Virus record (IMG/VR): IMGVR_UViG_3300045988_116240
Reading direction: 5' to 3' (one strand)
DNA from: a virus
Length of the DNA: 64,000 nucleotides
Part shown: positions 7,423-44,487 of the stretch, in pieces
Layout: the number at the start of each line of letters is the position of its first letter
How positions within the stretch are numbered: the first letter of the stretch is position 1
Notes under the pieces: model-generated
Told to the model about the DNA's origin: nothing
The model's input: the letters and a program-made list of their open reading frames with translations, nothing else
Databases searched by the model: none
Position numbers and translations under genes: made by a program

Positions 7423-7461
7423 CAAAGTAACAAACACGAGTCACTTTATTTATCTCTTTTG
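7423..7461 (+). promoter_or_regulatory. structural-operon promoter-like motif, copy 1 (CAAAGTAACAAAC-N22-TTTG)
   Basis: Same bipartite motif with the same 22-nt spacer at 28473-28511 and 44449-44487. Each copy lies 17-23 nt before an operon ATG. Confidence 0.45.
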
Positions 7462-7478
7462 CGAGAAAACAGTAGATT

Positions 7479-8033
7479 ATGATCGGAGCGATAGTTGGAG
7501 CCGCCAGTTCCTTGGCGAGTGGCATTGCCGGGGGAATAAAGGCAAGGAAGGCGGCTAGAAAAGCGAACGCCGTGTTGGATAAACAGGCAAAGGAGAATGA
7601 GGATTGGTTTAACCGTAGGTATAACGAGGATTATACCCAAAGCGCGGAGGCGCAAGCCGCCTTGACCAAGGCTAGGGAATTAGCGGATGAGCAGTACCGT
7701 AAGGCCTCCGGTACCGCCGCGGTCGTAGGAGCTACTGATGAGTCCGTAGCTCAGGCCAAGAAAGCGGCGGGCGAGGTGATATCCGATACCGCTAGTGGTA
7801 TAGCCACTAACGCTACCGCACGGAAGGATGCTGTGGAATCCCAATATCTCAACACCAAGAATAATATCAGTAACCAAAGGCTGTCTATCTATAATCAACA
7901 GGCGGCAAACGCCACGCAAGCGGCTAATCAAGGATTACAGGCAGGGATGGGCCTCGTTGGGGCTGATGCGCAAGCCCATCTTGACAAGGGTAAGGGATTA
8001 TTCGAGTCTATATTCAAAAGTAAACAACAATGA
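7479..8033 (+). CDS. hypothetical virion-associated protein (Gly/Ala-rich N-terminus, Ala/Gln-rich helical body)
   Basis: ORF track entry; first gene of the operon that ends with the giant ORF. 4-nt overlap with the next gene. Confidence 0.5.
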   Translation: MIGAIVGAASSLASGIAGGIKARKAARKANAVLDKQAKENEDWFNRRYNEDYTQSAEAQAALTKARELADEQYRKASGTAAVVGATDESVAQAKKAAGEVISDTASGIATNATARKDAVESQYLNTKNNISNQRLSIYNQQAANATQAANQGLQAGMGLVGADAQAHLDKGKGLFESIFKSKQQ

Positions 8034-9079
8034 CATTAGAGGAAAGATATAATAGGAAAAGGACCCCGGTCGTTCAAAGGCCGGAATTGTCCACTACGCC
8101 ATTGGTTGAGCCGGAGGTTGCCGGAAGCCAGAACCCTGTCGCTCCAACCGTGGATAATACGGATGAGACCGCTCCGCAAGCGAGCGTTGTCGAGCCTCAA
8201 ATGAACGATTACCAATGGAACCAAAGGCTTTATGAGACGCTCTTTCAAAAGCCGATAAGTCAAGAGGAGGAGGAGAGAAGAAAACGGGCCGCTTCCGTAG
8301 CTACTGGAATCGGGCATCTAGGCAATGTGTTGTCTTCCTTCTCCAATTTGGCATTCGCGGGAGAGGCACCTTCGCAGAAACTACCCACCGTAGCTGATCC
8401 TAAACTACAATCCTATTCTGACAGGTTGGAGGCTATCAGGCAAAGATACGGGGCCGGGTATCTGGCCGCAAGGCAAAACGACATCAATAATTATCAAAGG
8501 GCATTGCAGCTTTATAGACAGGATCAAGCGAGAAAAGCCCAGAATGATTTGGAAAAGGCCAAGATAGCGCAAAGTGCCGCTCAATTCGCAATAAAGAATG
8601 ACAGGGAGGAGCGGAAGATGAAACAGGATGCCGCATATAAAGAGAGAGAGTTGGGTATAAGGCAATCCAATCTCCGTAGTCTTGAGCAATATCGTACCGC
8701 TAAAGCTAATGGTTCTGGGGCGGATAAGTCTATTGACATCATCGGCAGAAACGGTAAACGTTTCACTTTGTCCGGTAAGGATAAAGATGGGGTTATCGCT
8801 TATATGTATAAGAGGATGTTGGAGTATGCGGAGGAAAATAAAGATAAAAACAAGAGCGTATCGGATGTAACGTGGCAGCTTGGTGAAGGTGGAGACCAAA
8901 AGACCAAACAAGCCGCTATTGTCATGAGTAATATTCAGAATTTCCCGGAATTATACGATGAGTTTGATAGGGTGATCGGATCGGGAGGTTCTTCTAGTAA
9001 GGGCAAGCATATCCCTTTAAACGATGAAGGAGGAACAGAAAATACAAACGAAAAATACAGCTGGATTCATGGATTCTAA
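8030..9079 (+). CDS. hypothetical protein (charged coiled-coil centre)
   Basis: ORF track entry, 349 aa; overlaps the start of the giant ORF. Confidence 0.55.
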   Translation: MTLEERYNRKRTPVVQRPELSTTPLVEPEVAGSQNPVAPTVDNTDETAPQASVVEPQMNDYQWNQRLYETLFQKPISQEEEERRKRAASVATGIGHLGNVLSSFSNLAFAGEAPSQKLPTVADPKLQSYSDRLEAIRQRYGAGYLAARQNDINNYQRALQLYRQDQARKAQNDLEKAKIAQSAAQFAIKNDREERKMKQDAAYKERELGIRQSNLRSLEQYRTAKANGSGADKSIDIIGRNGKRFTLSGKDKDGVIAYMYKRMLEYAEENKDKNKSVSDVTWQLGEGGDQKTKQAAIVMSNIQNFPELYDEFDRVIGSGGSSSKGKHIPLNDEGGTENTNEKYSWIHGF

Positions 9080-12000
9080 TGTAAAACATTTATATGACGC
9101 TATGATTAGCCAAGGATATACGGGACTTGGCGATTTCTCTAATTTTGAGGGTAAGATGAAAGACTCTGGAAAGAGGAGAATGGTTTATGATTATTTGATA
9201 CAAGATGATTATTTCTCCGAGATAGGCGATTTCTCCAAGTTCGAGAGTGCCCTAGGGTATTCGCCCGCAGAGAGGAAAGATTACGTTTCTCAATCAAGCG
9301 TTAATCCTGCACCTATCGCTTTAAGACAGGAGGTTGACGTGCCTATGAAGGATCAATCGGAATACGTTAATCCGTGGACGAACTCACCTGATTACAATTT
9401 TGAGTCCTTGCGTAAAAAAGGAAAGATTGAGACCGCTACTCCTCCACCTCCTACGGAGTATGAGAAGGATTCTTCTTTCATGAATACTTGGGTAGGAGAC
9501 GCTATACAGAAACTTAACGCAGGAGGAGCCGATCTTGGTGCCGGTATATTTGGGGTCTTGGATAAGGCGGCTAAAGGGTTGGAATCCGCAACGGGAGGAC
9601 TGATCCCACGTGGCGGGGCATTCAAGGATATCTCAGATATATTTAAGGCTGATGCGGAGTTTTCCCGGGCAAGGTCAAACAGATACAATGGCAAGGATTT
9701 CACCGATCTTTGGAAAGAAGGGAATTATATGGGTGCCATAGGTGATATAGCCTTGCAAGGCGTAGAGTCGCTTCCGATGTCAATCGGGGCCATGGCCGCT
9801 ACAATGGCCGGAGCTCCAGCGGCCGGACTCGCAGGTATAGGGTCAATAGTAGCTAGCCAGAAATATGATGATCTTGACCAGAATAACCCAAACATGGGAG
9901 AGTTCGCAAAGGTATCTAACGCTATTCTTACAGGTACGGCAGAATCCTTGTCTGAGATGCTGGGCGCTGGCGTATCCAAGGCTTGGATGTCAACCTTATT
10001 CAAGACGTTAGGAAAGGAAAAGGCACAAGAGGCTATCAAGCGTGGCATAATGGGTAAGATGCAAGAGTTCTATAAAAAATTCGGTATGTTTTTCGAGCCT
10101 GTAAATGAAGGTATCGAAGAGGTATCTTCCACGCTAGCGGAGAATATAACGGATAAGATAACAGGTGCGGATCCGGAAAGGGATTTGACCGATGGTGTAT
10201 TGCAGAGTTTTGTCTATGGAATGGGAGGCGGCGCTTATTTTACTGGGGCCGGAGCGTTGGCTAAAGGTGCGCAATACGTAGCGGATAAAATAGGAGGCAA
10301 ACAGGCTCAGCAGCCTATCACCGATTCCAATGTAACAGATCAAGGCGTTGAAACTCCTCCTCTATTAACTAAGTCTAGGTTTGCCGAGGCAGAGGAAGAA
10401 GGTCGAAATATGACTGATCCGGGCGATATACGGACGGCGAGCAAAAAGATGGAAGAGACAAGGCTTTCCCTATCTGGAATGGTTCCGGGTTTGGCTAGTA
10501 CGATAGAAAGCTATGTGGATGATAAAGCTAGCGAGGCCCAAGTGATGAGTCTTCTTGATGGAGTTAATGCGGATGCCCGTCCGTTAGCCGAGGATTTCTA
10601 CGCTGATTATCTCAGGATATCCGGTTTGCAGGATCGTATAGGCGAGGAAATAGACAATGAGGTTGAAACTTACGTTGCCAATAATATTACTCCTTATGTT
10701 ACCACGAATCCTGATGGTCAGTCTATCGTTACCATGGCTACGCTTAGCGAGGGAAATGAGGAAAGACCTGTGTACGTTAGGAGTATCGAGGGAGATAAGG
10801 CCGTTATTTCCGATAACGGACAGGATCGGATGGTCTCGGTGAAAAGGTTGAGCGATATAGTAGAGCAAGATGCCGGTCATATGAGACGGACCTATGAGGA
10901 TCAATTATTGGCTAACCGCCAGTCCGAGCTTGACATGACCATGCATCATAATCCCAAGACGCAATTACCAAAGCCGGGGTTGATCGTATGGAACGGGGAT
11001 AATGCGTTTATCCTTCAAGGACAAGATGAGAACGGTGATTGGATCGCTCAACCTGCGGCTTATGATAGAGAAACCGGGCAGGTGACAGCCAAGAATGGCT
11101 CTTCTCCAGCAATGCCTATAACAGAGAATGAGATTCTTGATCTTCAAGATGCCATATATGACGCTCAACAAGTTAATGTGGTGTCGCCAGAGGATGATAA
11201 TGTTGCAAGTGCTGATGCCGAGATAACCTCTGCACCTCCCGTGGAAGATGCGATCAACCAGCCAACGAGTGAGATTGAGACGGAAGGTGCCATTGATCAG
11301 ATAGCACAACCTAGCAATGTGGAGAATCTTTCCATGGTTATGCGAGAAGATGGTACACCCGATTTCGTATCATCAGGAACGGATATGGCCTTGGATTTCC
11401 TCTATGATAAATATGGCGATAAGATGCCAAGGAAGATCGAGGTGACGAGAAAGTCTTTCGATGAAAGCCTTAAAAAAGCGTCTGATGCCTTGGAAAAGGC
11501 GCAAGAGGCATACGATGATGCCCCTATCGGAAAAGAGGATAAGCCTGAGGCCGCATTGATAAAAGCCCGACAAGAATATGAGGCGATCAAGGTCGAGGCT
11601 GATTTCTGGGCTAATCTTGATGATGATATCAAGGAGGCCAGCAAGAAGCCGGGTGATGTCATAGCGAAGGAGATCTCCGTGATAGGTGATCCTATGAGCG
11701 GAGAGGAGCTTGCGGCCATGATGCTGGCTAATGGGGCGATCAAATTGACACGTGACAGTTACAAGAAAGAGACCGGTGCCGGGAATAATGAGACAGCGAG
11801 GATGTTCGGACTGTTCGCCTCTCCGGAGAAAGGCGGTGTTAATATAGAGAGGGCGGGTGAGATATTGGAGCTTGCCGATAGGGAGAATGGCACTAACTTC
11901 TTCGATGAGAACGATACGAACGCCGGAAGGGACGCTATCATAGAGGTCTTGTCTTCCGCTCATACACGTGGAGACTTGATCGATTATGTCAAGAGGAACC

Positions 12001-15000
12001 GTGAGGCGATCGCTGAGCGTGAGAGACAGGCCGAGTACAACGCTTACGCTGAGTGGTGCGAGGAGAATTATCATATGTCCCCGGAAGAATACGAGGCGTA
12101 TGAGGAAAGCATGGTACGTGATTTCTCGGAGAAACAATTGACTGATGAGGAGCGAGGCGAGCTTGATTCGCAAATCGTGGATGAAATACAGGCCATAATT
12201 GACGAACAAAATGAAATAGACGCTATCTTAGCGCAAAATAAACCGATAGAAAATGAAAACATTGAAGGAAATGACGAAAGCGGAGGCGATGGCTTACGCG
12301 AGGGAGGCGGCGAGGTACTGCCAAGAGAACAACTTGATCAGACCGGGGGAACTGGAGAGGTTGAGGGAAGAGAATCGGCTGGCCCCGACATTGATCGCAC
12401 GGATGGAGCTACACAAGAAGGCTCATCAAGGGGACTAGTTCCTTTTGTCGCTCCTTCTCCAAAGGAGAATGAGACCCCATTGGACTATGCCGAGCGCATA
12501 GTTGAGGCTAAGAGATTGCACGAAGAGGAGCTAAAGGTTGATACCAATCCAACCGAGGCGCAGAAAGAGGCCGGCAATTACAAGAAAGGCCATATAAAGA
12601 TAAACGGTTTTGATGTCACCATAGAGCAGCCCGCCGGTTCCGTCCGTTCCGGTAAGGACGCTAGCGGAAAGGAGTGGTCGCAGGTCATGAATAACACTTA
12701 CGGTTACATTCGAGGTACTGAAAGTGTGGATGGTGATCATATAGACGTATTCCTAGGTCCGGATATGAATAGTGACATGGTGTATGTCGTGGATCAGGTG
12801 AATACTGATGGCTCATTCGATGAGCATAAGGTTATGATGGGATTCCCTTCCTTGGAAGACGCTAGGTCCGCTTACTTGTCAAACTATGAGGAGGGTTGGC
12901 AAGGGTTAGGCAACATTACCGGGGTCACGTTGGATGGGTTCAAGAAATGGATTGATTCCTCGACTCGCAAAACAAAGCCCTTCTATGAGTATAAGGGAAT
13001 TAAACAGGAGGAAAGCGATATTTCTAAAAATAATGATTCTGATAATTATAGCATTGTTTCCTCCCAATATACTACCAAGAAAGGAAAAGTTCTTGATATG
13101 TGGCTATTGAAGTTCGGTAATGAATTATCGAAGGAACAGCAACGTGCCGCCAAAGAGCTAGCCAAGGCTGAAAAGGGTTGGTATGACAGGGAACAGCGAG
13201 GTTTCATGATGCGTAGCGATGAAAGCGCAAGGCGGTTGGCTGATACCATTCTTGGCGATACCGATGCCGTAAGCGATGCGCAACCTATTTCTCTTGAAGA
13301 CACACGCAGGGTCGTAGAGCCTCAAAAGGTAAATGTAGAAAACCTTATTGGTGATATCAACGATAAGGGCAAAGCCAAATTGAGCGATCGTACCGTTACC
13401 CCTAGCGGTAACCGCCTTGTTACCGATGAACGGTATGCGGAACTCCGTGAGCGCATGCGCAAGAAACTAGGCGGTCAAATGAATATGGGTGTTGATCCTG
13501 AGATATTGGCGATAGGTACTGAAATGGCGGTTTATCATATAGAGAAAGGCTTGCGTAAGTTCTCTGATTACTCAAAGGCTATGATCGATGATCTAGGTGA
13601 CGCTATACGACCGTATCTTAAATCATTCTACAATGGAGCGAGGGATTTACCGGAAGTAGAAGAGAACGGATGGGATAAGGATATGACCACTTATGAGGAT
13701 GTCCGTTCGTTTGATGTAGCTAATTTTGATAAGCCAGTCCCGGATATAATGGATGCCGCTGAGACCGTGGTTAAAGAGACTGAGATTGCCGGACAAGCGA
13801 GTGCCGCGGAGAAAAAAATAAAAAATAGCCGGAAAAAGCGAACGGACAACAAGGACAAACCATTACCTTTGTATGGTAACGATTTATTCACTCCTAATAA
13901 TATTAAAGACAATGAGCAAGGAAATTCAAGAGCGGATCAAGGCGTGGGAAGAAAAGCACGGGAAGAGGATCGAGGATCTGAACGCGGAGGAGACCGTGGA
14001 GGCGTGCATGGAAGTGATGTGCTTGACACGGAGCGAGGCCGAGGAATACCTATCAGCGACAGCGACAAGCGGCCTGTTGTAAGGAATCAAAACAATTTCA
14101 GCTTCCCGGAGAAAGGTATTGAGCTTCCTTCCGGTGATATATCCAAGCTAAAAGCCAATATTGAGGCGATAGAAACGCTGAAAGACGTAGAGGACGGCCA
14201 AGGAAAACCTACCCCGGAACAACAAGCCAAGATGTCAAGGTACGTTGGATGGGGAGGTTTGGCCGAAGCCTTGAACGAAGGCAAATACAACGCACGTGAC
14301 AACAATTGGACTAAGGATCGAAATTGGAATGATAAGTATCTACGTTATTATGAGAAACTAAAATCCTTATTAAGTAAAGAAGAGTTCGACAGTGCCGTCC
14401 GTTCCACGACAACCTCTCATTATACCCCGTCCGAGGTCGTGGAAAGCTTATGGGGAATAACGGAGAAACTTGGATTCAAGGGTGGCAATATCAGTGAACC
14501 CGCTATGGGTATAGGCAACATAATCGGTATGATGCCTAGGTCTATATCTGAAAACTCAAGTATAAGTGGGTTCGAGATAGATAGTTTATCCGGTCGTATG
14601 GCAAAGGCTTTATATCCTGACGCTAATATAAAGGTACAAGGATATGAGAAAGCGTTTTCTCCAAACTCGAAAGACTTAGTTATCACCAACGTCCCATTCG
14701 GGAAAAACGCTCCATATGATAAGGTTTTAGATAAGCAATTCAGGAAGAAACTTGGTTCCTCTTATAATCTCCATAATTATTTTATCCTAAAGGGGCTTCT
14801 GGAATTGAAAGAAGGTGGTCTCGGCGTATTCGTCACGTCCTCGGCTACGATGGATGGGGCCGATAGTAAGTTCCGTGAGTACGTGAGTGGGAACGGTTAT
14901 GATCTGGTCGGAGCTATCCGATTGCCTAATGACGCTTTCCAGAAAGGGGCCGGCACGAGTGTCACGGCCGACATCGTTATATTCCGTAAAAGAAAGTATG

Positions 15001-18000
15001 GGGAACCTTCGAATGGGATAGGGTTCGCTACTACAACGCAAATAGGTGAAGGAACTTATATGGAGGACGGGGATAAAAGGAGCAAGCCTATCATGGTTAA
15101 CGAGTATTTCTCCAATCATCCCGATATGATGTTAGGTGATATGATGACTGCTTATGACGCTGGTAGCGGAGGTCTATATAGTGGAGCGTCCCAGACATTG
15201 AAAGCCAAACCCGGGGCCGATTTAAGCAAGGAGCTATTTAACGCTATTGATAACTTACCAAAGAATATCCTATCAGGTGTTGTAGAGACTAAAGGGCCGG
15301 AGGTTGTGGGTGACTCCACTTTGAAAGATGGTACTATTACCGTCCAGAATGGCAATGTCTTTGTTTTAGATGGGGACTCGTTAAAACCGATTAAGGCAAA
15401 TCCTACGTTCGTTCATAATGGTAAGACCCGGAAAATAGCGGATGCGGTAAATGATTACAATGATATAAAGAAAAATCTATACGATCTTATCCATGATGAG
15501 CAAACAAAGGGTGTGGATCCCGAGCCCGCGAGGAAAAGGCTAAACAAAGTATATGATGCTTTCGTGTCCAAATATGGGACACTTAACAGGAACAAGGCTT
15601 TGGACGATATTTTCGCCGAGGATGTTGAGCATGGATTACCCTTCTCTTTGGAAACCGTTAGAAGGGTACCTTCCACGACCGGAAAATCTATGGTATGGGA
15701 AGTCTCGAAAGCGGATGGTATCTTGAATAAGCGTGTAAGTTATCCATTCGAGCTACCGACAAAAGCGGATAATGTCTTGGATGCCGTCAATATAAGCAAG
15801 TCATATAAAGGTAATATTGATATACCTTATATCTCGGAGATAACGGGTATGGATGAGGTGAACGTGACAAACGAGATACTAGAGAAGGGAATTGCTTATA
15901 GGGATCCTGTTACCGGCAATATAATAGATAAGAGCGAATATCTCTCTGGAAACGTAAAAGATAAGTTGGTAGAGGCTAAGGCGGCCTTGGAAGATCATCC
16001 GGAGTTTCAAAAAAACGTGGATGACTTGGAAGCCGTACAGCCAGAACGTATACCCTATGGTGAGATAAGTTATCGACTGGGGACTACATGGATCCCGTCT
16101 GAGTTTATAAATAATTTCGCTGATAATGTACTGGGTATATCTTACGCCAACGCTAATTTTATCCCGGAGATCGGTGAGTATATTCTTGATAAGAGGGCGT
16201 TCATAACCGATTACGCTAAAGCCGGTCAATTCAAGACTGAGAGAATGGACGCTATAGACGTGTTCAAGGCCGCTCTTAACCAACGTAAACCCAAGGTTTA
16301 TGACGAGATTAAATATTATGAGGATGGTAAGCAGAAAACGAGAAGGGTCGTAAACGAGCAGGAGACACAGGCCGTTGCCGAGAAAATATCCGACATGTCC
16401 GATAAGTTCGTGGAGTATATTGATTCTAAAACGATGTTTCATGGTCGTATTGAGGACGTGTATAATGATAAATATAACAACTATGTACTAAAAAAGTATG
16501 ACAAACCGGTTTTTGAGCATTATCCTAACGCTAATAAGAATATAACACTTAGGGATCACCAGAGCAAGGCGGTGCAACGTTGTCTATCCGAGAGCACGTT
16601 ACTCGCTCACCAAGTCGGTACGGGAAAGACCTTTACCATGATTACGTCCGCTATGGAAATGAGACGGCTAGGTATAGCGAAGAAACCCATGATCGTTGTC
16701 CAAAACGCTACCCTAGAGGATTTCGTCCGTGACTTTTATAAACTGTATCCTTCCGCTAAGATTCTATCTCCGACAAAGGAGGAGCGTAACGCCGATAATA
16801 GGACAAGGCTGTTCAATCTTATAGCTACCGGAGATTTTGACGCTATCGTTGTCCCACAGTCATTCATGGCGTTTATCCCGGATAGCGAGGAAAGGAAAAA
16901 GGCATATATCCAAAAGCGTATAGATGATTTTGAGGAGGCTATCGATCGCATAGAAGACAAGGCTTTACAGGAGAGATTGAAAAGGGAGGCCAAGAGTATG
17001 CGTGATTCTCTGGAAGGTATAAAGAAAGGGAAAAACGTAAAGGGCAAGGCAAAGACAGCGGAGACTATCACGGCCAAGACGGAGCGTATTCTTGACAGGC
17101 GGACTGATAACGTCATGACGTTTGAGCAAATGGGTGTTGACGCTTTGTTCATTGACGAGGCGCATAATTATAAGAAGATCGGGTTTCCAAGCAAGATGTC
17201 GAACGTTAAAGGTATCGATACGAGCGCGTCACAAAGGGCTAATAGTATGTTGCTAAAAGCCCAATGGATATCTGAGAATAATGGTGGTCGAAACGTGGTT
17301 CTGGCAACCGGTACCCCTATCACTAATACAATGGCAGAGGTCTGGACTATGATGAATTTCGTGGCACCCGATATCCTAGACGCGTATAATATCAATAGCT
17401 TTGACGAGTTCGCTACCACTTTTGGAACGGTTGAGCCCTCATTGGAGTTTACCGCTACCGGTAACTTTAAGATAGCCGAGAGGTTCAAGAGCTATACGAA
17501 TGTCCCGGAGCTTATAAAGGCGTTCAGGAGCCATACGGACGTTGTCTTGACAGAGGATGTCAAGGAGTTCAAGGAAGACAAGAATATCCCTAAGTTGAAA
17601 GACAATAAGATGACCAATGTCATTGTCGAGAAGAACGAGGACTTGGAGGATGTCATGCAAACCCTTATCAAGGAATTAGAGGATTATAACAAATTGACAG
17701 GAAAAGAGAAGAAGGATAAGAGCGCGCTACCCTTGGTCGTGTTCAGCAAGGCTAAACAGGCTGCGATTGACCTTCGCTTGCTTAATCCTACATTTCCCGA
17801 CAATCCTGATAGCAAGACAAACAAGGTGGTCGATAACGTGTTGAGATTATATAAGGAGAGCGATAAGGACAAAGGCACGCAACTTATATTCTGCGATAGT
17901 TATCAATCCCCTTCTGAGACTCCAAAAATGGATTTATTCGATGTCGATTTATCTGTTCCTCAGTTTAATTTGTACAATGATATAAAGGAAAAGCTTATCA

Positions 18001-21000
18001 AGGGAGGTATTCCGTCTAATCAGATAGCTATCGTTGGCAATTATGAGGGAGAAAGGAGAAACGCCTTGTTCGATAAGGTCCGTAATGGGGATGTGCGCAT
18101 TCTTATTGGAAGCACGGAGAAAATGGGAGTGGGTGTCAACGTGCAAGATCGTCTATTCGCCCTGCATCATATTGACGCTCCAATCAGGCCTATGGATTTT
18201 GAGCAACGCAACGGTCGTATCTTACGACAAGGAAACTTATACGCCACATGGGATAAACCGGTGAACATCGTCACATATGGCGTTAAAGGTACCCTTGACG
18301 CTACCGCCTATGACAGGCTTCGTATAAAACAAAACTTCATCAACCAAATGATGAAAGGCGATATATCGTCTCGTGTAATGGAGGAGCAAGACGATAGTGA
18401 TCCGTCTGGAATGACATTTAGTGAGATGGCGGCGACGTTATCAGGAGATAAGACCGCCCAACTGCTGTTTGTGGCACAGAACAAGTTAAAGAAATTGCAA
18501 AACTCCAAGAGGAGCGATCTTAACAGTAAGTCTTCCATGCGTGACTCTATATCTAACTCCAAACTTAGGATACAAGAATACAACAGCCGGAAGGATATCA
18601 TGGAAAGGAACGCCAATATCGTAAAAGAAAACTTCCCTGATGGGGTTGAGTCCGTGACTGTTAAAGGCAATACTTTCAGCGATGGTATATCGAATGAGCT
18701 TACGCCCATTATTGATGATTACTATGATAGATATACGCTTGACAGAAACACCCCTCCTCTGAAAATCAGTCTCAATGGAGGAAAAGGCGAGGCAATCGTG
18801 CATTTCAATGAAGGTATGATGGTCTATAGCTTATATTTAGGAAAGGAAAAACTGGTTGAGAATCGTGATTTTAGCGGCGGCAAGGGTTTGATGGCTAGCA
18901 TTGACAGGCAGTTGGGGATTCCCGCTAAATCCGTCTCAGATATAGCCGCTAAAATAAAGGCAGAGGAAAACAAGATAGCGGGATTAGAGGAAGCCGTTAA
19001 GAAACCGTGGGGAAAAGAGGATGAACTTAATGCGGCTCAGGCAGAGGTTAATGATCTGCAGAGACAATTAGTTGAAAAAGCTAAAGCTGAGGATATTCAG
19101 TTAGAATCAACTCTTGACGTTGATGGTACGTTGGTAAAAGAGGAAGGAGAGACTCGATTTCGATTCATGGGAGTAGATACAACTAATAATCAGGATAATG
19201 TAAGTTCTATTGAATCCTCAATCAACGATTGGTCAAACAAGCTTAATACCCCTGTCAGGGTAATCCATGACGTGGACGATATAAACGATACGGATGAGAA
19301 TATGTTGGCCCGTAAGAGAGATTCCAAAGGCTGGTATGATACTTCTACCGGGGAGATAGTCATAGTATCACCTAATTCCACGTCCGTAGGTGACGCTCAA
19401 AGGACTTTCCTCCATGAGGTGGTAGGGCATCATGGGTTACGTGAGCTATTCAGGGATGATTTCGATACTTTCCTTGATAACGTGTATCGGAACGCCAACG
19501 AGGATATCCGGAAAAATATCATTGATCGGACTAAAGGCAATCCTCTTAACTTGCGTGAGGCTACAGAGGAATACCTCGCTGAATTAGCGGAACGTGGTTT
19601 CGATAACAAGGCCGAGCGTTCGTTATGGGAAAAGATCAAGGACTCTTTTCTTGATATGTTGAGAAAGGCAGGTATTAGTCTTGATTTCAAGTTATCGGAT
19701 AATGACCTCCGTTATATTCTCTGGAGAAGCTATAAGAACTTGGAGCAAGGAAACTTGATGGATGTGGCCGAGGATATCGTGATGAGAAATAGATTAAGTC
19801 TTAACAATATAAATTTGAACGAAAATGGATCAATCGCAAGAGATATTGAACCTGAAAAAGGAAAACAACCTTCTGAAACAAAAGGTACTGGAAGGGAACT
19901 CGAGACAATCGATGGCGTTGATGAGAACGGAAACGAAAGTGAACGAGACCATATCGACAAACCAAGGGGAGTTGAAAACGCTATTGACGGAACTGAAAAC
20001 GCAACTGACCGAAATGGAAAAAAGACTGACGGCCAAGTTGACAACGATGGAGACCAACTTGACGGAGGAGATACGGGCGATAGGAACGGAAGTGTCCGGG
20101 ATGGAATCGGCGGTGATCGGACTGTCATCGGACGTGCAGGATCTGAAAACAAGGGTAGAGGCGTTGGAGAAAGCGTAAGGGAAAAGACGGATGATTTCTC
20201 TTTCGCCGAGAAAACAATCCGTTTTAGGGAGAACGCGCGGAATGAGTCGGTATTGTTCGCTGATAATGATATCCAAGTAGTAGAGAAACAGGTAGGTTCC
20301 GCCAAAGATCAATATGAGCGTACCCTATCTACATCGTCCTATCAATTTCAGGAGGCGTTTCAGGATTCTATGCTAGGGCTTAAAACATTGCAGGATGCCG
20401 TGGCAAAGGCAACGAGGAGTCGTATATTGGATTATGAGAACGCTTATATGGCCGAGAATGCCCTTTCCTCCGTTAATGAAGCGGAGTTCAACGCTTATAG
20501 GAAAGCGGCTTTCGAGCCTATCTTAAAAGCGATCTCACGTTTGGAAAAGATGGGATCCACCATTGATGAGATAAGGGATTACCTTATAACCAAGCATGGT
20601 ATTGAGCGTAACAGGGAAATGGCCGTTAAACGAGTGTTGTCACAAAACTCGGAAACATATAAATCCCTGCTTGACGAGTATATCGGGAGAAGGAATGAGA
20701 TACGTGAGAACGGTAGGTCTTGGGAAGAGCAGCAATCAGAAATGGATAGGCTTTCCGAGGAATACGGAGCTAATCTTTCTGATGATTTCAGCGGATTCAC
20801 GTCCATGTATCCTAACGAGGATAACACGGGGTATGATCCGGATTCCGCAAGGAGATACGTATTGGATTACGAGTCAAGATATGATACATCGGAATTATCG
20901 GCCTCTGTCAAAAGAGCCACTGACGCTATATTGGCAAAGCAACGGGATAGCGGGCTTATGAGCCAAAATACGTTTGATTCGATCAGCGATATGTATCAGT

Positions 21001-23288
21001 TCTATGTGCCTTTGCGTGGATGGGAGGAGACTACGGCAGATGAGGTTTACGCTTATCTTACATCCGAAAGCCAAACGTTCAACGCCCCTATAAAGACTGT
21101 CGTTGGGCGAAAGAGCAAGGCTGACGATCCTATAGCGACGATCGCTAATATGGCAGAGAGCGGAATCATGCAAGGGAATAGGAACTTGATGAAGCAAAAG
21201 TTTTTGACAATGGTACAAAACCATAAGACGGATCTCGTGAGCGTAAGCGAAATGTGGGTTCGTCTTGACGAGGCTTCCGGTGAGTGGATCGCCGTTTTCC
21301 CGGATATACCATCTAACGCCAATCCGGAACAGGTGGAGTCTATCGTGGAATCTTTCAACAAACGCATGGAGGAGCTATCCAATGAAAAAGGATCTAATGT
21401 TAGACGTTCAAGGGATGCTATAGGGATACCTTACAAGATATTGCCAAAGGACTTGAAGGAGCATCAAGTGATCGTAAAGAGAGCCGGCAAAGAATACTTA
21501 CTTACCATAAACGGGAACCCAAGGGCCGCTCAAGCGTTGAACGGGCTTACAAACCCGGATAATACGAAAGGATGGTTTGGTACCGTGGAGAGATACGCCG
21601 GATGGCTGAATCGAAACTTGGCGGCTAATTTTACGACACGTAACCCGAATTTCATGGTAAGTAACTTCCTCCGTGACGCTCTTTATTCGAATACTACCGT
21701 ATGGGTCAAGGAAAGTCCTGTATACGCATGGAAGTTCAATAAGAATTTCGCTATGGTAAACCCGATCAATATGTATCGTCTGGTCAAGGGGTATGAGAAC
21801 GGTACGTTGGATATGAGCGATCCATTGAATAAGGCATATCATGATTTTGTAATGAGAGGAGGAGAGACCGGATACACCAATTTGAGAGACGTGGAAGCCA
21901 AGAAGAAGGCGATCCAAAAAGAACTTCAATACTCCAAGCAAAAGGTATCTATCGGAAAGGCTTTGAAAATACTAGGCGAATGGATGGACTTGTTCAATAA
22001 GAGCGTAGAGAATTGCGCTAGGTTCGCCGCGTTCATTACTTCTAGGGAAATGGGGCGGAGCATGGATAAATCCATTTATGACGCTAAGGAGATATCCGTA
22101 AACTTCAATAAGAAAGGGGCGGGTTCAAAATTCTTGAATACTGAGGGGCAGACCAAGATAGGTAACGCTAGCGCTTTCACGTCCGGATTGTCAAGATCCA
22201 TGTATGTGTTTTGGAACGCTGGTGTACAAGGTATGTATAATTTCGGAAGGCTAGCCAAGGATAATCCCAAGAAATTCTTGGGGTTAGCGTCCTCTTTCTA
22301 TTTACTTGGCACTATCATGCCTATGATCGCTGCCGCTTTTGGGGATGATGAAGATGATGATTACTACGATCTTCCGGAATACGTGAGACGTAATAATATC
22401 TGTTTCCGTAACGGTGGAGGAAATTGGATTACAATTCCTATGCCCATAGAGTTAAGGGCTATATATGGACTAGGAGAAATGTCTTCTGGAATAGTTTCCG
22501 GAAAGGAGAAGTATACCGATAAAAAGATGGCCATGAAGATAGCGGAGCAAATGTCACAGGTTCTTCCTTTGGACATGATGGAGGGAGGTGGAGGATTCTC
22601 CGCTTTCGTCCCAAGCTCGGTAAAGCCATTGATTGAGGCCGGAGATAACAAGGATTGGACAGGTTTGCCTTTATATAAGGATAACGATTTCAACAAGGGT
22701 ATGCCTGAATGGACGAAGGCTTTCAAGAGCGTGGATCCCGCTATATTGGCGATGACTGAATATGCCAATAAGTTGACCGGTGGAGATAAATACACTATCG
22801 GTGCGGTTAATCTGAACCCGGCCATTATAGAGCATATATTGGACGGCTATTTCGGAGGTATCGAGGCTACACGTGCGCAGATGGTCAAATCCGCTGAAAC
22901 CGCTTGGGGTAGTCGTGATTTTGACTGGAGGAATATCCCTGTCGGGAACCGTCTTATAAAAAGTGGTGATGAGCGGACGAAAAAGAAAGCCATAGATAAC
23001 GCTTATTATGAGAATTTGGAGGAAATGGATAAGATCGGACAAAGATTGAGAGGATATCGTAAAGAATTGTCTAATCCACAGAACGATAGTTTTGATATAG
23101 CAGAGTATCAGAAAAAATTGAATGATCTTATGATGAGCGATGAATATCGTGGATATGTAGAGTTTAATAATCTTAACAAATTGTATCAATCAATGGGTGA
23201 GTATTTGAAGAAGGTAGATGATGAAAGATTGGAAATGGAGTTATACGATTTGAAAGCTATGATGAATGAGATAGCTAATGGTAAATAG
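9024..23288 (+). CDS. giant polyvalent protein (4,754 aa): PPase-like + N6-adenine MTase + SF2 helicase + zincin-like motif, with hydrophobic Gly-rich termini; candidate packaged/ejected anti-restriction protein (DarB-like logic)
   Basis: Single uninterrupted ORF. Motifs are listed in the sub-features below. An alternative in-frame start at ATG 9069 (MDSNVKHLY) overlaps the upstream stop. Confidence 0.9.
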   Translation: MKEEQKIQTKNTAGFMDSNVKHLYDAMISQGYTGLGDFSNFEGKMKDSGKRRMVYDYLIQDDYFSEIGDFSKFESALGYSPAERKDYVSQSSVNPAPIALRQEVDVPMKDQSEYVNPWTNSPDYNFESLRKKGKIETATPPPPTEYEKDSSFMNTWVGDAIQKLNAGGADLGAGIFGVLDKAAKGLESATGGLIPRGGAFKDISDIFKADAEFSRARSNRYNGKDFTDLWKEGNYMGAIGDIALQGVESLPMSIGAMAATMAGAPAAGLAGIGSIVASQKYDDLDQNNPNMGEFAKVSNAILTGTAESLSEMLGAGVSKAWMSTLFKTLGKEKAQEAIKRGIMGKMQEFYKKFGMFFEPVNEGIEEVSSTLAENITDKITGADPERDLTDGVLQSFVYGMGGGAYFTGAGALAKGAQYVADKIGGKQAQQPITDSNVTDQGVETPPLLTKSRFAEAEEEGRNMTDPGDIRTASKKMEETRLSLSGMVPGLASTIESYVDDKASEAQVMSLLDGVNADARPLAEDFYADYLRISGLQDRIGEEIDNEVETYVANNITPYVTTNPDGQSIVTMATLSEGNEERPVYVRSIEGDKAVISDNGQDRMVSVKRLSDIVEQDAGHMRRTYEDQLLANRQSELDMTMHHNPKTQLPKPGLIVWNGDNAFILQGQDENGDWIAQPAAYDRETGQVTAKNGSSPAMPITENEILDLQDAIYDAQQVNVVSPEDDNVASADAEITSAPPVEDAINQPTSEIETEGAIDQIAQPSNVENLSMVMREDGTPDFVSSGTDMALDFLYDKYGDKMPRKIEVTRKSFDESLKKASDALEKAQEAYDDAPIGKEDKPEAALIKARQEYEAIKVEADFWANLDDDIKEASKKPGDVIAKEISVIGDPMSGEELAAMMLANGAIKLTRDSYKKETGAGNNETARMFGLFASPEKGGVNIERAGEILELADRENGTNFFDENDTNAGRDAIIEVLSSAHTRGDLIDYVKRNREAIAERERQAEYNAYAEWCEENYHMSPEEYEAYEESMVRDFSEKQLTDEERGELDSQIVDEIQAIIDEQNEIDAILAQNKPIENENIEGNDESGGDGLREGGGEVLPREQLDQTGGTGEVEGRESAGPDIDRTDGATQEGSSRGLVPFVAPSPKENETPLDYAERIVEAKRLHEEELKVDTNPTEAQKEAGNYKKGHIKINGFDVTIEQPAGSVRSGKDASGKEWSQVMNNTYGYIRGTESVDGDHIDVFLGPDMNSDMVYVVDQVNTDGSFDEHKVMMGFPSLEDARSAYLSNYEEGWQGLGNITGVTLDGFKKWIDSSTRKTKPFYEYKGIKQEESDISKNNDSDNYSIVSSQYTTKKGKVLDMWLLKFGNELSKEQQRAAKELAKAEKGWYDREQRGFMMRSDESARRLADTILGDTDAVSDAQPISLEDTRRVVEPQKVNVENLIGDINDKGKAKLSDRTVTPSGNRLVTDERYAELRERMRKKLGGQMNMGVDPEILAIGTEMAVYHIEKGLRKFSDYSKAMIDDLGDAIRPYLKSFYNGARDLPEVEENGWDKDMTTYEDVRSFDVANFDKPVPDIMDAAETVVKETEIAGQASAAEKKIKNSRKKRTDNKDKPLPLYGNDLFTPNNIKDNEQGNSRADQGVGRKAREEDRGSERGGDRGGVHGSDVLDTERGRGIPISDSDKRPVVRNQNNFSFPEKGIELPSGDISKLKANIEAIETLKDVEDGQGKPTPEQQAKMSRYVGWGGLAEALNEGKYNARDNNWTKDRNWNDKYLRYYEKLKSLLSKEEFDSAVRSTTTSHYTPSEVVESLWGITEKLGFKGGNISEPAMGIGNIIGMMPRSISENSSISGFEIDSLSGRMAKALYPDANIKVQGYEKAFSPNSKDLVITNVPFGKNAPYDKVLDKQFRKKLGSSYNLHNYFILKGLLELKEGGLGVFVTSSATMDGADSKFREYVSGNGYDLVGAIRLPNDAFQKGAGTSVTADIVIFRKRKYGEPSNGIGFATTTQIGEGTYMEDGDKRSKPIMVNEYFSNHPDMMLGDMMTAYDAGSGGLYSGASQTLKAKPGADLSKELFNAIDNLPKNILSGVVETKGPEVVGDSTLKDGTITVQNGNVFVLDGDSLKPIKANPTFVHNGKTRKIADAVNDYNDIKKNLYDLIHDEQTKGVDPEPARKRLNKVYDAFVSKYGTLNRNKALDDIFAEDVEHGLPFSLETVRRVPSTTGKSMVWEVSKADGILNKRVSYPFELPTKADNVLDAVNISKSYKGNIDIPYISEITGMDEVNVTNEILEKGIAYRDPVTGNIIDKSEYLSGNVKDKLVEAKAALEDHPEFQKNVDDLEAVQPERIPYGEISYRLGTTWIPSEFINNFADNVLGISYANANFIPEIGEYILDKRAFITDYAKAGQFKTERMDAIDVFKAALNQRKPKVYDEIKYYEDGKQKTRRVVNEQETQAVAEKISDMSDKFVEYIDSKTMFHGRIEDVYNDKYNNYVLKKYDKPVFEHYPNANKNITLRDHQSKAVQRCLSESTLLAHQVGTGKTFTMITSAMEMRRLGIAKKPMIVVQNATLEDFVRDFYKLYPSAKILSPTKEERNADNRTRLFNLIATGDFDAIVVPQSFMAFIPDSEERKKAYIQKRIDDFEEAIDRIEDKALQERLKREAKSMRDSLEGIKKGKNVKGKAKTAETITAKTERILDRRTDNVMTFEQMGVDALFIDEAHNYKKIGFPSKMSNVKGIDTSASQRANSMLLKAQWISENNGGRNVVLATGTPITNTMAEVWTMMNFVAPDILDAYNINSFDEFATTFGTVEPSLEFTATGNFKIAERFKSYTNVPELIKAFRSHTDVVLTEDVKEFKEDKNIPKLKDNKMTNVIVEKNEDLEDVMQTLIKELEDYNKLTGKEKKDKSALPLVVFSKAKQAAIDLRLLNPTFPDNPDSKTNKVVDNVLRLYKESDKDKGTQLIFCDSYQSPSETPKMDLFDVDLSVPQFNLYNDIKEKLIKGGIPSNQIAIVGNYEGERRNALFDKVRNGDVRILIGSTEKMGVGVNVQDRLFALHHIDAPIRPMDFEQRNGRILRQGNLYATWDKPVNIVTYGVKGTLDATAYDRLRIKQNFINQMMKGDISSRVMEEQDDSDPSGMTFSEMAATLSGDKTAQLLFVAQNKLKKLQNSKRSDLNSKSSMRDSISNSKLRIQEYNSRKDIMERNANIVKENFPDGVESVTVKGNTFSDGISNELTPIIDDYYDRYTLDRNTPPLKISLNGGKGEAIVHFNEGMMVYSLYLGKEKLVENRDFSGGKGLMASIDRQLGIPAKSVSDIAAKIKAEENKIAGLEEAVKKPWGKEDELNAAQAEVNDLQRQLVEKAKAEDIQLESTLDVDGTLVKEEGETRFRFMGVDTTNNQDNVSSIESSINDWSNKLNTPVRVIHDVDDINDTDENMLARKRDSKGWYDTSTGEIVIVSPNSTSVGDAQRTFLHEVVGHHGLRELFRDDFDTFLDNVYRNANEDIRKNIIDRTKGNPLNLREATEEYLAELAERGFDNKAERSLWEKIKDSFLDMLRKAGISLDFKLSDNDLRYILWRSYKNLEQGNLMDVAEDIVMRNRLSLNNINLNENGSIARDIEPEKGKQPSETKGTGRELETIDGVDENGNESERDHIDKPRGVENAIDGTENATDRNGKKTDGQVDNDGDQLDGGDTGDRNGSVRDGIGGDRTVIGRAGSENKGRGVGESVREKTDDFSFAEKTIRFRENARNESVLFADNDIQVVEKQVGSAKDQYERTLSTSSYQFQEAFQDSMLGLKTLQDAVAKATRSRILDYENAYMAENALSSVNEAEFNAYRKAAFEPILKAISRLEKMGSTIDEIRDYLITKHGIERNREMAVKRVLSQNSETYKSLLDEYIGRRNEIRENGRSWEEQQSEMDRLSEEYGANLSDDFSGFTSMYPNEDNTGYDPDSARRYVLDYESRYDTSELSASVKRATDAILAKQRDSGLMSQNTFDSISDMYQFYVPLRGWEETTADEVYAYLTSESQTFNAPIKTVVGRKSKADDPIATIANMAESGIMQGNRNLMKQKFLTMVQNHKTDLVSVSEMWVRLDEASGEWIAVFPDIPSNANPEQVESIVESFNKRMEELSNEKGSNVRRSRDAIGIPYKILPKDLKEHQVIVKRAGKEYLLTINGNPRAAQALNGLTNPDNTKGWFGTVERYAGWLNRNLAANFTTRNPNFMVSNFLRDALYSNTTVWVKESPVYAWKFNKNFAMVNPINMYRLVKGYENGTLDMSDPLNKAYHDFVMRGGETGYTNLRDVEAKKKAIQKELQYSKQKVSIGKALKILGEWMDLFNKSVENCARFAAFITSREMGRSMDKSIYDAKEISVNFNKKGAGSKFLNTEGQTKIGNASAFTSGLSRSMYVFWNAGVQGMYNFGRLAKDNPKKFLGLASSFYLLGTIMPMIAAAFGDDEDDDYYDLPEYVRRNNICFRNGGGNWITIPMPIELRAIYGLGEMSSGIVSGKEKYTDKKMAMKIAEQMSQVLPLDMMEGGGGFSAFVPSSVKPLIEAGDNKDWTGLPLYKDNDFNKGMPEWTKAFKSVDPAILAMTEYANKLTGGDKYTIGAVNLNPAIIEHILDGYFGGIEATRAQMVKSAETAWGSRDFDWRNIPVGNRLIKSGDERTKKKAIDNAYYENLEEMDKIGQRLRGYRKELSNPQNDSFDIAEYQKKLNDLMMSDEYRGYVEFNNLNKLYQSMGEYLKKVDDERLEMELYDLKAMMNEIANGK
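9520..10265 (+). other. Gly/Ala-rich hydrophobic segment of the giant protein (membrane-active?)
   Basis: GADLGAGIFGVL, SLPMSIGAMAATMAGAPAAGLAGIGSIVA, YGMGGGAYFTGAGALAKGA. Confidence 0.5.
12570..12900 (+). other. inorganic-pyrophosphatase-like module of the giant protein
   Basis: NNTYGYIRGTESVDGDHIDVFLGPD compared with E. coli Ppa [24 protein letters not shown] (recalled from memory). Confidence 0.5.
14100..15130 (+). other. N6-adenine DNA methyltransferase module of the giant protein
   Basis: Motif I-like ISEPAMGIGNIIG (about 14490-14528); motif IV-like VITNVPFGKN (about 14679-14708). Confidence 0.75.
16540..18300 (+). other. SF2 (SNF2/DEAD-like) helicase module of the giant protein
   Basis: AHQVGTGKTFTM (Walker A), FIDEAHNYKK (DEAH), LATGTPITN (motif III), QRNGRILRQGN (motif VI). 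Confidence 0.8.
19409..19435 (+). other. HExxH zincin-like metallopeptidase motif in the giant protein
   Basis: TFLHEVVGHHGLRELF. Confidence 0.5.
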
Positions 23289-23296
23289 GAGAAGTG

Positions 23297-23320
23297 GCGG
23301 GTGACGTTGGTGTCACCCGC
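23297..23320 (+). terminator. hairpin directly after the giant ORF
   Basis: 9-bp stem GCGGGTGAC/GTCACCCGC with a 6-nt loop; no strong T-run. Confidence 0.45.
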
Positions 23321-23370
23321 TATATGTTATCAAACAGATTGTATAATATACTTCATGTAAAATAATGAAG

Positions 23371-23400: not shown

Positions 23401-24159
23401 ATGGAAGAAAATATTGATATGCCTATTGAGCAAGATGTGACTATAGAGCTGATATTGTCTGTATTTAAAAATTATTCAGACTCGAAGCGGATGAAAGAAA
23501 TAAAAGACATAATAGTTTCATTAATTCATCCTGATGAATTAATAGTTGACTCTGAAGAGAGAAGTCGTATAGAAAATAAAGTGGTTGAACTTATATCCAT
23601 AGATAAGAGAAGAGGGGACGAATCCGAGCTCAAATATTCTAACGGTAAATATAGTAAGAGAAAAAAAAGATCAGATCCTAAACCTATAGTGGATCTATTG
23701 CCCAGCGTGGAGTATACAGGCACCGCCGGAGAATGCGCCGTGATATCAGAGCTGTTGTTTTCCGGTTACAATGCAAATAGGATGATGGTCGATGAGGGCG
23801 TAGATATAATAGCGGTAAAGGATAATATCTATTATTATGTACAGGTAAAGACTACGACCATAAAGGATGGGCGTGTTTATGCGCAGATAAAAACAGATAG
23901 GTTCAACCAATTTATGTCCGCACAAATAAGATATATTATTGTAGCAAGGTATGATGATCATGGGATTTCCCGTAATATGTTCTTCTCTTTCACTCCACAG
24001 CAAATAGATCAGGCGGCTTATGAAGGATGTATAAAGAAGAATGAAAACACGGTAAGTATAAAGATAAAGTTTAATGATAAAACCGGGAAGCCTTATCTTT
24101 ATGATAACAATGAGTGTAGTTGTGCTTGGAATTGGAACAAGAAGGATCTTTTAGGATAA
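23401..24159 (+). CDS. PD-(D/E)xK (Hjc/restriction-endonuclease-like) nuclease-fold protein candidate
   Basis: GECAVISELLFSGYNANRMMVDEGVDIIAVKDNIYYYVQVKT fits the E...D-(I/V)-(I/V)-A...(E/Q)-V-K pattern of archaeal Hjc-type nucleases. Confidence 0.55.
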   Translation: MEENIDMPIEQDVTIELILSVFKNYSDSKRMKEIKDIIVSLIHPDELIVDSEERSRIENKVVELISIDKRRGDESELKYSNGKYSKRKKRSDPKPIVDLLPSVEYTGTAGECAVISELLFSGYNANRMMVDEGVDIIAVKDNIYYYVQVKTTTIKDGRVYAQIKTDRFNQFMSAQIRYIIVARYDDHGISRNMFFSFTPQQIDQAAYEGCIKKNENTVSIKIKFNDKTGKPYLYDNNECSCAWNWNKKDLLG

Positions 24160-24171
24160 AATTTTAAGACT

Positions 24172-24570
24172 ATGCCAAATATAAAGAAGAAATATATTCC
24201 TTTTTTTGTTCCCGCTTTGCTTTCAGTGATAGCGTTTTTTTATATTCCATCTCCATCCGAATTTAGCGATGAGAATCATGTGTATGTAAAAGCTTTTGAT
24301 ACTTATATGGAAGTTCTTAGCGTATCTACATGGCTTTGGGTCATTATACCGTTCTTTTTGTACTATATAGGAACTGTATATGAATTTTCTAAGAAAAGAG
24401 GAGATAGCGCTTTCCGGCTTTCATTATATTCAACATTGGCATTCATATCGCTATGGTTGTTCTGCATTCAATTATCAACGGAATTTCATACACCTTGTTT
24501 ATTACTCTTGTTCGCTTCGGTTTATACGTTCTTTTTCCCTTGGATAGGTAATAAAGTTAATTTGTTTTAG
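24172..24570 (+). CDS. small integral membrane protein (4 predicted TM helices)
   Basis: ORF track entry, 132 aa; 12 nt after the nuclease-like gene. Confidence 0.6.
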   Translation: MPNIKKKYIPFFVPALLSVIAFFYIPSPSEFSDENHVYVKAFDTYMEVLSVSTWLWVIIPFFLYYIGTVYEFSKKRGDSAFRLSLYSTLAFISLWLFCIQLSTEFHTPCLLLLFASVYTFFFPWIGNKVNLF

Positions 24571-28472: not shown

Positions 28473-28511
28473 CAAAATAACAAAACGGATATACCTTATT
28501 ATTTTCCTTTG
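28473..28511 (+). promoter_or_regulatory. structural-operon promoter-like motif, copy 2 (CAAAATAACAAAA-N22-TTTG)
   Basis: See 7423-7461. Lies 23 nt before ATG 28535. Confidence 0.45.
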
Positions 28512-28534
28512 CCTAAAACAAAATCGATTAAGGT

Positions 28535-44448: not shown

Positions 44449-44487
44449 CAAAATAACAAAATAATCATACCTAAAGCCCTATTTTTG
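44449..44487 (+). promoter_or_regulatory. structural-operon promoter-like motif, copy 3 (CAAAATAACAAAA-N22-TTTG; includes an exact TATTTTTG -7 box)
   Basis: See 7423-7461. Lies 17 nt before ATG 44505. Confidence 0.5.

Follow-up and report, generated by a model that had tools for sequence, protein, structure and literature searches.

We found that a single giant open reading frame (ORF) in the IMG/VR virus record IMGVR_UViG_3300045988_116240 encodes a protein that joins a pyrophosphatase-like domain, a DNA methyltransferase, a helicase, a putative metallopeptidase, and a large conserved C-terminal module. We read this giant protein as a virion-packaged, DarB-like polyvalent effector of a temperate, short-tailed human-gut phage, and we put the probability of this reading at roughly 0.8. 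The window, by which we mean the whole stretch of DNA analyzed, is 64 kb long. The ORF runs uninterrupted on the plus strand from 9024..23288 (14.3 kb; 4,754 codons plus the stop codon) and takes up 22.3% of the window, in agreement with the original prediction, which had reported one 14.3-kb ORF of 4,754 amino acids (aa) over about 22% of it. The protein has a computed mass of 531 kDa and a pI of 5.0. The original prediction had also placed it among the polyvalent proteins of Iyer et al., and the occurrence of InPase, N6-adenine methyltransferase, SNF2 helicase, HExxxH, and LPD38 domains in one ORF bears this out. The same interpretation has already been published for related proteins; the giant protein is a well-documented example and not a new type of system, and it leaves knowledge of the class unchanged.

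The giant ORF is real and is not an assembly chimera. An identical 4,754-aa protein is carried by at least seven contigs from two assemblers, and for the human gut metagenome run ERR688545 it is present both in the ENA assembly, on a contig of 64,325 bp, and in the Logan assembly. At 90% identity, the protein falls into a cluster of 962 members whose full-length versions span 4,744-4,944 aa, which makes this a very common human-gut phage. The cluster includes the RefSeq protein WP_373238525.1 ([quoted passage not shown]), which is 97.5% identical to the giant protein and is encoded on a 525-kb contig; on this basis, the host of the phage is probably P. distasonis. We then surveyed 80 IMG/VR loci that carry the C-terminal LPD38 module, scoring the fusion only where enough upstream DNA was available. 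The stretch of ORF ahead of the module exceeded 600 aa in all 27 close loci and in 35 of 36 distant loci (62 of 63 in total). The contrary explanation, that several genes were joined by misassembly or annotation into an artificially long ORF, could draw on a relative (L006) in which the LPD38 module is a gene of its own (1,014 aa) after a 4,580-aa gene and on the fragmented copy in a Bacteroides ovatus prophage. It is effectively refuted by the recurrence of the identical protein, by the full-length members of the cluster, by the fusion in the IMG/VR loci, and by the cultured phages BKO1-TP3 and BS-TP4, which have 5,553- and 5,391-aa versions. A chimera had been named beforehand as one of the things that could undo the prediction; the identical protein on at least seven contigs and the fusion in 27 of 27 near-identical loci speak for an intact gene. 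L006 had at first suggested that the LPD38 module is mostly encoded on its own, an idea that the survey overturned. As to size, the protein had been described as about twice as large as DarB of phage P1, and this holds (4,754 vs. 2,255 aa); such a size is not exceptional, and relatives reach 5,553 aa.

Translation probably begins at M16 (nucleotide, nt, 9069), which would give a protein of 4,739 aa, because the first residues of three related proteins (BF1-TP2 gp68, P0288, and the P. distasonis RefSeq protein) align with M16 and because a start at M1 would create a 56-nt overlap with the upstream gene.

The middle of the protein holds a methylase-helicase cassette. The core of a DarB-type N6-adenine DNA methyltransferase lies at aa 1780-1990 (14361..14993, plus strand), with motif I EPAMGIG(N) at aa 1825 and motif IV NVPF(G) at aa 1889. 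Its alignment with aa 72-275 of P1 DarB has 27% identity (E 6e-19), and DarB shares both the EPxxGxG pattern of motif I and the unusual motif IV GNVPFG. The Pfam profile of Eco57I-type methylases matches aa 1876-1953 with 24.7 bits, just below its cut-off of 25.3, and the methylase region is 39% identical to gp75 of phage Bcep22. Downstream lies a SNF2-family helicase or translocase of superfamily 2 (SF2; aa 2507-3107, 16542..18344, plus strand), recognized by PF00176 (SNF2-rel_dom), PF04851 (ResIII), and PF00271 (Helicase_C) over aa 2507-3070. Its motifs I, II, and VI are intact (GTGKT at aa 2532, DEAH at aa 2711, and QRNGRILRQGN at aa 3061), and its matches in the Protein Data Bank (PDB) include SNF2, ISWI, and INO80 ATPases. 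Here, aa 2298-2871 align with DarB aa 614-1212 and aa 3027-3165 with DarB aa 1474-1603, and the three alignments with DarB (the methylase and the two helicase parts) are collinear. The PHROG family 10089 ("DarB-like antirestriction") matches the protein from aa 1625 to aa 3591 with an E value of 0. The original prediction had named both sets of motifs and had compared the pairing of methyltransferase and helicase with DarB; the motifs are present as described, and the Pfam and PHROG profiles and the comparison with DarB support both enzymes as well as their DarB-like arrangement.

P1 itself is a myovirus, and its DarB depends on DarA, Hdf, and Ulx; no counterpart of these three was noticed here, in an analysis that did not search for them. 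The two proteins share the order of an N6-adenine methyltransferase (EPxxGxG, GNVPFG) followed by an SF2/SNF2 helicase. In contrast to the giant protein, DarB is less than half as long (2,255 aa) and lacks the InPase, HExxxH, and LPD38 parts. DarB is packaged in the phage head and guards the incoming DNA in cis against type I restriction (PMC5512222).

What had been predicted as a pyrophosphatase-like module proved to be a full-length match to the Pfam domain InPase (PF18823, E 1.7e-58; aa 1178-1310, 12555..12953, plus strand), a type I inorganic-pyrophosphatase-like domain of a polyvalent-protein clade. A similar domain forms the C terminus of the 765-aa "gp19 Portal" in PDB entry 9b41_L, where it matches aa 1190-1320 of the giant protein (E 1.3e-34); in this fusion the domain is physically part of a virion component. 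InPase and LPD38 have been described as domains restricted to phage-type polyvalent proteins (PMC5512222).

The region ahead of InPase (aa 1-1170, 9024..12533, plus strand) is lineage specific, with no Pfam, PHROG, or PDB match, and is 76% identical to BF1-TP2 gp68 (aa 16-1326). Homologues of the giant protein were gathered by separate N-terminal and C-terminal searches, and the dedicated N-terminal search yielded 16 homologues of this region in all. The stretch from aa ~150 to 430 (nt 9471-10313) is hydrophobic and rich in Gly (15%) and Ala (14%), peaking at aa 254-276, and a single transmembrane-like helix lies near the other end of the protein (aa 4421-4439); these two correspond to the Gly-rich hydrophobic segments that had been noticed near both ends. 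The Asp/Gly/Glu/Arg-rich linkers said to separate the domains were likewise recovered by composition at aa 1080-1150 (G 21%, E 15%), aa 1620-1690 (G/R/D 15/14/13%), and aa 3610-3740 (G/D/E/R 17/13/11/10%). Pfam scans of eight subsegments at E<=1 gave no new match in aa 1-1170, 1320-1700, 2100-2500, or 3100-3620.

The last domain ahead of the C-terminal module is a putative zincin-like metallopeptidase (aa ~3400-3610, 19221..19853, plus strand). The original prediction had listed an HExxH motif. A regular-expression search found no HExxH in the whole giant protein; the sequence meant is HEVVGH, an HExxxH motif (aa 3464-3469, nt 19413-19430), followed by EEYLAE at aa 3515-3520. Across 59 homologues, residues H3464, E3465, H3469, and E3516 show 98-100% conservation, and most relatives have this domain immediately ahead of the LPD38 module. 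A HEXXXH clade of polyvalent-protein metallopeptidases has been described by Iyer et al. (PMC5512222, section 8), who give the zincin core as an N-terminal helix, a three-stranded sheet, and two C-terminal helices (PMC5512222). Our AlphaFold (AF2) model of the domain (predicted local distance difference test, pLDDT, 86; predicted template modeling score, pTM, 0.81) has an N-terminal helix, three strands, and a long helix (76-111 of the model) that bears the motif. The modeled topology is consistent with the zincin fold, which stays unconfirmed; the sequence of the domain matched no PDB entry and no Pfam metallopeptidase family.

The C-terminal ~1,000 aa (aa 3751-4754, 20274..23285, plus strand) form the LPD38 module, whose core at aa 4444-4640 matches Pfam LPD38 (PF18857, E 3.7e-37). 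Its hydrophobic helix at aa 4421-4439 is followed by an acidic run. We collected 215 homologues with 40-55% identity across the full ~1,000 aa and about 110 invariant positions; the domains N-terminal to the module vary among them and include MuF_C, PBECR3, LPD3, LPD23, and others. The AF2 model of the module is mostly helical (pLDDT 76, pTM 0.70). In BFVD, its fold matches are C-terminal pieces of giant phage proteins (template modeling, TM, 0.5-0.78 over ~1,000 columns), among them bearers of lytic transglycosylase (LT_GEWL), RelA/SpoT, and methylase domains. By tblastn, the module occurs in 341 phage records, including the cultured Bacteroides phages BS-TP4, BKO1-TP3, and BF1-TP2, Stx podophages of the 933W/phi24B type, Bcep22-like Burkholderia phages, and phages of Ralstonia and Vibrio; in IMG/VR, it has 413 relatives.

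Exchange of cassettes between these constant parts is directly visible among close relatives. The 3,633-aa gp68 of BF1-TP2 matches the giant protein at aa 16-1326 (76% identity), in the HExxxH domain (88%), and in the LPD38 module (32%), and it has ART-PolyVal and PBECR5 domains in place of the methylase-helicase cassette. These two closely related phages, which have the N terminus, HExxxH domain, and LPD38 module in common but differ in the center (an anti-restriction cassette in one, an ADP-ribosyltransferase plus nuclease cassette in the other), amount to a natural experiment in modularity. On a finer scale, two variants 98% identical to the giant protein (P0294 and P0300) carry either a 95-aa insert of unknown nature or an extra LPD13 domain of 190 aa (E 1.2e-42). 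The two inserts lie within the E/G-rich linker, at aa ~1135 (window position ~12425), so the linkers serve as sites of cassette insertion.

A close counterpart from another host phylum is gp75 of Bcep22, a "DarB-like antirestriction protein" and itself a giant ORF product of 4,602 aa that carries an Eco57I/DarB-type methylase, SNF2, and a C-terminal LPD38 in the same order as the giant protein. The two share 28.6% identity over aa 1461-3357 (~1,900 aa) and 21% over the LPD38 module. The full domain order of gp75 is SLT, methylase, SNF2, LPD3, and LPD38; unlike the giant protein, gp75 has the N-terminal SLT lytic transglycosylase and LPD3, in place of which the giant protein has its 1,170-aa N terminus, InPase, and HExxxH. 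In the Bcep22-like phages (Lessievirus), which are temperate podophages with genomes of ~60 kb, the giant ORF likewise accounts for ~22% of the genome. They differ in their small upstream proteins, which are not detectably homologous, and in their hosts, which are Pseudomonadota and not Bacteroidota. A further homologue, JC1 gp69 (4,515 aa, 22.1% of the JC1 genome), has been described as most similar to Bcep22 gp75 (PMC9144972). It was detected by mass spectrometry in CsCl-purified virions, and two virion-associated proteins precede it (PMC9144972).

A second lineage consists of the LPD38 proteins of Stx phages (phi24B gp47, 933W L0134, and Stx2-86 gp35), which are ~2,800 aa long with the domain order LPD5-LPD1-MuF_C-LPD38. 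Their LPD38 module has 22% identity to ours over 87% of 1,004 aa, and their gene too is the last of a late operon in a temperate podophage. Their cargo is different, without methylase, helicase, or InPase. The phi24B protein gp47 (2,811 aa) is abundant in virions and was not seen in the cryo-EM map (bioRxiv 10.64898/2026.04.10.717836); its authors proposed that it is an ejection protein stored in the capsid that forms a trans-periplasmic conduit (bioRxiv 10.64898/2026.04.10.717836). By analogy with these homologues, JC1 gp69 and phi24B gp47, placed in virions by mass spectrometry, the giant protein is likely to be packaged.

Within its own phage group, the giant protein has counterparts in BKO1-TP3 gp55 (5,553 aa, annotated as "DarB-like antirestriction") and BS-TP4 gp3 (5,391 aa), two larger versions that GenBank already contains, and in BF1-TP2 gp68. 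These temperate Bacteroides phages share the small/medium/giant gene order, an LPD38 module with 32-47% identity, and a P22-like portal, SU10/DUF5309 capsid protein, and terminase. BKO1-TP3 gp55 also carries InPase and SNF2 domains. Differences lie in the cargo (ddrB-ParB in BKO1-TP3; ART-PolyVal and PBECR5 in BF1-TP2) and in the portal gene, which directly follows the giant gene in BKO1-TP3 and BS-TP4 and lies elsewhere in the window. A search of the literature on BF1-TP2 and on polyvalent proteins in Bacteroides phages found nothing.

The genomic context also connects the giant gene with virion genes. It is the third and last gene of a tightly packed three-gene operon that encodes proteins of 184 aa, 349 aa, and the giant protein. 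The operon is preceded by a promoter-like motif, CAAAGTAACAAA-N23-TTTGC (7423..7462, plus strand), 17 nt upstream of the first gene. The composite pattern CAAARTAACAAA-N23-TTTGC occurs exactly three times in the window, compared with 0 expected from 100 shuffles. The other two copies of the motif (CAAAATAACAAA-N23-TTTGC) lie at 28473-28512, before the head operon with the SU10/DUF5309-type capsid gene, and at 44449-44488, before an operon that starts at 44505. The motif also precedes the equivalent gene in the relative L007. It is absent from BF1-TP2 and from more distant relatives, even with two mismatches, and seems specific to this phage lineage. A general scan for sigma-70 promoters gave no more matches than in shuffled sequence, and a terminator scan gave fewer. 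Six nucleotides after the giant stop codon, RNAfold of 23286-23345 gave a 12-bp GC-rich hairpin (23294..23323, plus strand) that is likely to mark the end of the operon; the terminator scan missed it because no T-run follows.

The first gene (7479..8033, plus strand) encodes a Gly/Ala/Gln-rich protein of 184 aa, a candidate internal virion protein resembling the T7 gp14 family. It matches Pfam T7_gp14 (PF24072) weakly, over positions 2-166 of its 184 aa (E 1.1e-5; 25.9 bits at a cut-off of 27). The same profile matched 29 of 56 aligned homologues (best E 7e-8), and 1,140 cluster representatives matched the protein at E<=1e-3. We regard the gp14 link as weak. Bcep22 gp73 and JC1 gp67 were considered as counterparts of the 184-aa protein and rejected, with no significant hhalign result; Bcep22 gp73 is a PAPS reductase. 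The second gene (8030..9079, plus strand), whose start overlaps the stop of the 184-aa gene, encodes a 349-aa protein that matched no Pfam or PHROG family and is 26% identical to BF1-TP2 gp69, which has the equivalent position. By position, it is the counterpart of the virion proteins JC1 gp68 and Bcep22 gp74; sequence similarity to them is undetectable. The portal gene comes right after the giant gene in all 44 of the more distant relatives, within 600 nt of the LPD38 stop codon and on the same strand. The original prediction had put the giant ORF in a virion operon, together with two Ala/Gln-rich genes behind a structural-type promoter motif. The two genes at 7479-8033 and 8030-9079, the threefold motif shared with the capsid-gene operon, the weak T7_gp14 match, and the position of the portal gene in the distant relatives all agree with that placement.

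At the position that the portal gene has in the distant relatives, the window holds genes for a 252-aa protein (with a weak match to PD-(D/E)XK, PF11645) and a 132-aa hydrophobic protein (23401-24570). This junction varies among the close relatives: only 11 of the 28 have the 252-aa gene downstream of the giant gene.

Several results weigh against our reading of the giant protein. A Foldseek search of PDB with the model of the LPD38 module gave no significant match (best E 0.66), T7 ejection proteins included, and the same search with the HExxxH model gave none either, the best zincin being selecase (4qhi_B; E 8, TM 0.40). Unlike Bcep22 gp75, the giant protein shows no recognizable peptidoglycan hydrolase; Pfam matched no SLT or lysozyme domain in it. 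The portal gene lies downstream of the giant gene in 0 of 28 close relatives. As for the 184-aa protein, the window's own copy stays below the Pfam T7_gp14 cut-off; its family profile compared with the T7 gp14 sequence was not significant by hhalign and negative by hidden Markov model (HMM) search; and the family HMM, run against the ORFs of the T7, Stx2-86, Bcep22, and JC1 loci, matched none of them, although it did match BF1-TP2. A gp15- or gp16-like fold of the LPD38 module was rejected on the null Foldseek result.

An alternative is that the protein does not enter the virion at all. It could instead act late in the producing cell, for example by methylating progeny DNA, with its position near structural genes being coincidental. 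Late expression, as suggested by the promoter motif, would suit a methylase of progeny DNA equally well, and in this lineage the gene is not beside the portal gene. We nevertheless consider this improbable: homologues with the same C-terminal module are found in virions in two independent lineages, InPase and LPD38 are restricted to phage-type polyvalent proteins that are predicted to be packaged, InPase is fused to a portal in a solved structure, and a 531-kDa fusion of unrelated enzymes is ill suited to the work of a cytoplasmic methylase.

For a packaged effector, we propose the following course of events. The giant gene would be transcribed late, as the last of the three genes, from the phage-specific promoter motif that it has in common with the capsid-gene operon. 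The protein would be loaded into the capsid and, at infection, leave by way of the portal and tail, before the DNA or with it. The C-terminal ~1,000-aa LPD38 module would be the constant "chassis" for packaging, ejection, or both, and may help to build a path across the envelope with the two small proteins; the part upstream, with InPase as one of its components, would be exchangeable cargo strung on the Gly/Asp/Glu/Arg-rich linkers. The DarB-type methyltransferase, coupled to the SNF2 translocase, would shield incoming DNA against restriction in cis. The HExxxH metallopeptidase-like domain may cut the polyprotein at its linkers. We infer ejection, anti-restriction activity, and self-cleavage from the domains and from known systems, and a role in the conduit is a hypothesis by analogy.

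That hypothesis can be taken further. The LPD38 module and the 184- and 349-aa proteins may together form an ejectosome, equivalent to T7 gp14, gp15, and gp16, that acts as the trans-envelope conduit for DNA, with the enzymes as passengers attached to an essential structural protein. This would extend the reading of the protein as a packaged effector, and we rate it as conceivable at rather less than even odds. T7 gp16 carries a lytic transglycosylase, and the N4 virion RNA polymerase is ~3,500 aa long. Like the T7 proteins gp14-gp15-gp16 and the N4 polymerase, which are stored in the capsid and ejected through the tail, the giant protein is very large, and the small/medium/giant gene order with the weak PF24072 match of the first gene mirrors gp14, gp15, and gp16. 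No other candidates for ejection proteins were recognized in the window. LPD38 proteins elsewhere carry lytic transglycosylases (SLT in Bcep22 gp75 and LT_GEWL in the BFVD matches), the module has a hydrophobic helix (aa 4421-4439), it is strongly conserved (40-55% identity, ~110 invariant positions) while the cargo varies, and this is also the role suggested for gp47 in the phi24B study. Unlike the known examples, however, the giant protein has no RNA polymerase domain and no similarity in sequence or fold to T7 gp15 and gp16 (BLASTP and phmmer found no match to either) or to any solved ejection protein. The many invariant polar residues of the module could equally mean an enzyme, and the link of the first gene to gp14 is below threshold.

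More broadly, we suggest, tentatively and with doubts of our own, that the LPD38 module is more than a domain associated with polyvalent proteins and defines a widespread, uncharacterized ejection or packaging family of podophages of the 933W, Bcep22, and Bacteroidales types, one that lacks a counterpart among solved structures. The module would be a universal C-terminal delivery chassis, and any cargo attached to it through low-complexity linkers would travel with it into the capsid and on into the cell, to be freed by the adjacent HExxxH peptidase. If this is true, the natural cassette swaps amount to a modular protein-injection system whose rules can be read from metagenomes. Giant polyvalent proteins are the means by which many temperate podophages deliver a first-strike toolkit into the cell. 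The present group is a good system in which to ask which part is the packaging or ejection signal and how the cargo tracks host defenses in Bacteroidales.

The rest of the window encodes a tyrosine integrase (4951-6435), a terminase (25437-27551, minus strand), a P22-like portal (42428-44410, minus strand), tail-fiber genes (one with a crAss001 gp22-like segment), and an amidase; the terminase and capsid-protein genes lie 2 to 6 kb downstream of the giant ORF. As the original prediction had stated, no tape-measure or tube gene was recognized in the window, which is consistent with the temperate podophage reading. PDB searches with the portal protein and with an 847-aa protein, aimed at tail parts, gave no match. 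The segment related to crAss001 belongs to a 788-aa protein (31996-34362) and resembles the tail fiber gp22 (PDB 7qoj_J, E 7e-24). At the place of this protein, four relatives (L005, L006, L014 from 27276 onward, and L015 from 26961 onward) have a second giant gene (2,143-2,645 aa), which in the head/tail operon follows the 212-aa gene.

Next to the terminase gene, the relatives L004, L005, L006, and L001 encode a protein like the rhomboid-family intramembrane proteases (PF01694); the equivalent ORF of the window (27511-27984, minus strand) had no PHROG match. One of these, the chromosomal relative L004 (Bacteroides ovatus GCA_024788605.1, 4337287-4362221), has a fragmented giant gene, with integrase fragments and a 278-aa helicase fragment, followed by a 1,644-aa remnant with Helicase_C and LPD38, which suggests a decaying prophage or insertion. 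The phage also carries genes for tRNA-Met and tRNA-Arg(CCU) and a third tRNA-like prediction whose anticodon loop is abnormal (898-972, 2062-2135, and 63861-63928). Behind the third copy of the promoter motif, two adjacent small genes (44950-45477 and 45474-45989) both belong to phrog_19255, a family of unknown function, and are probably tandem paralogues.

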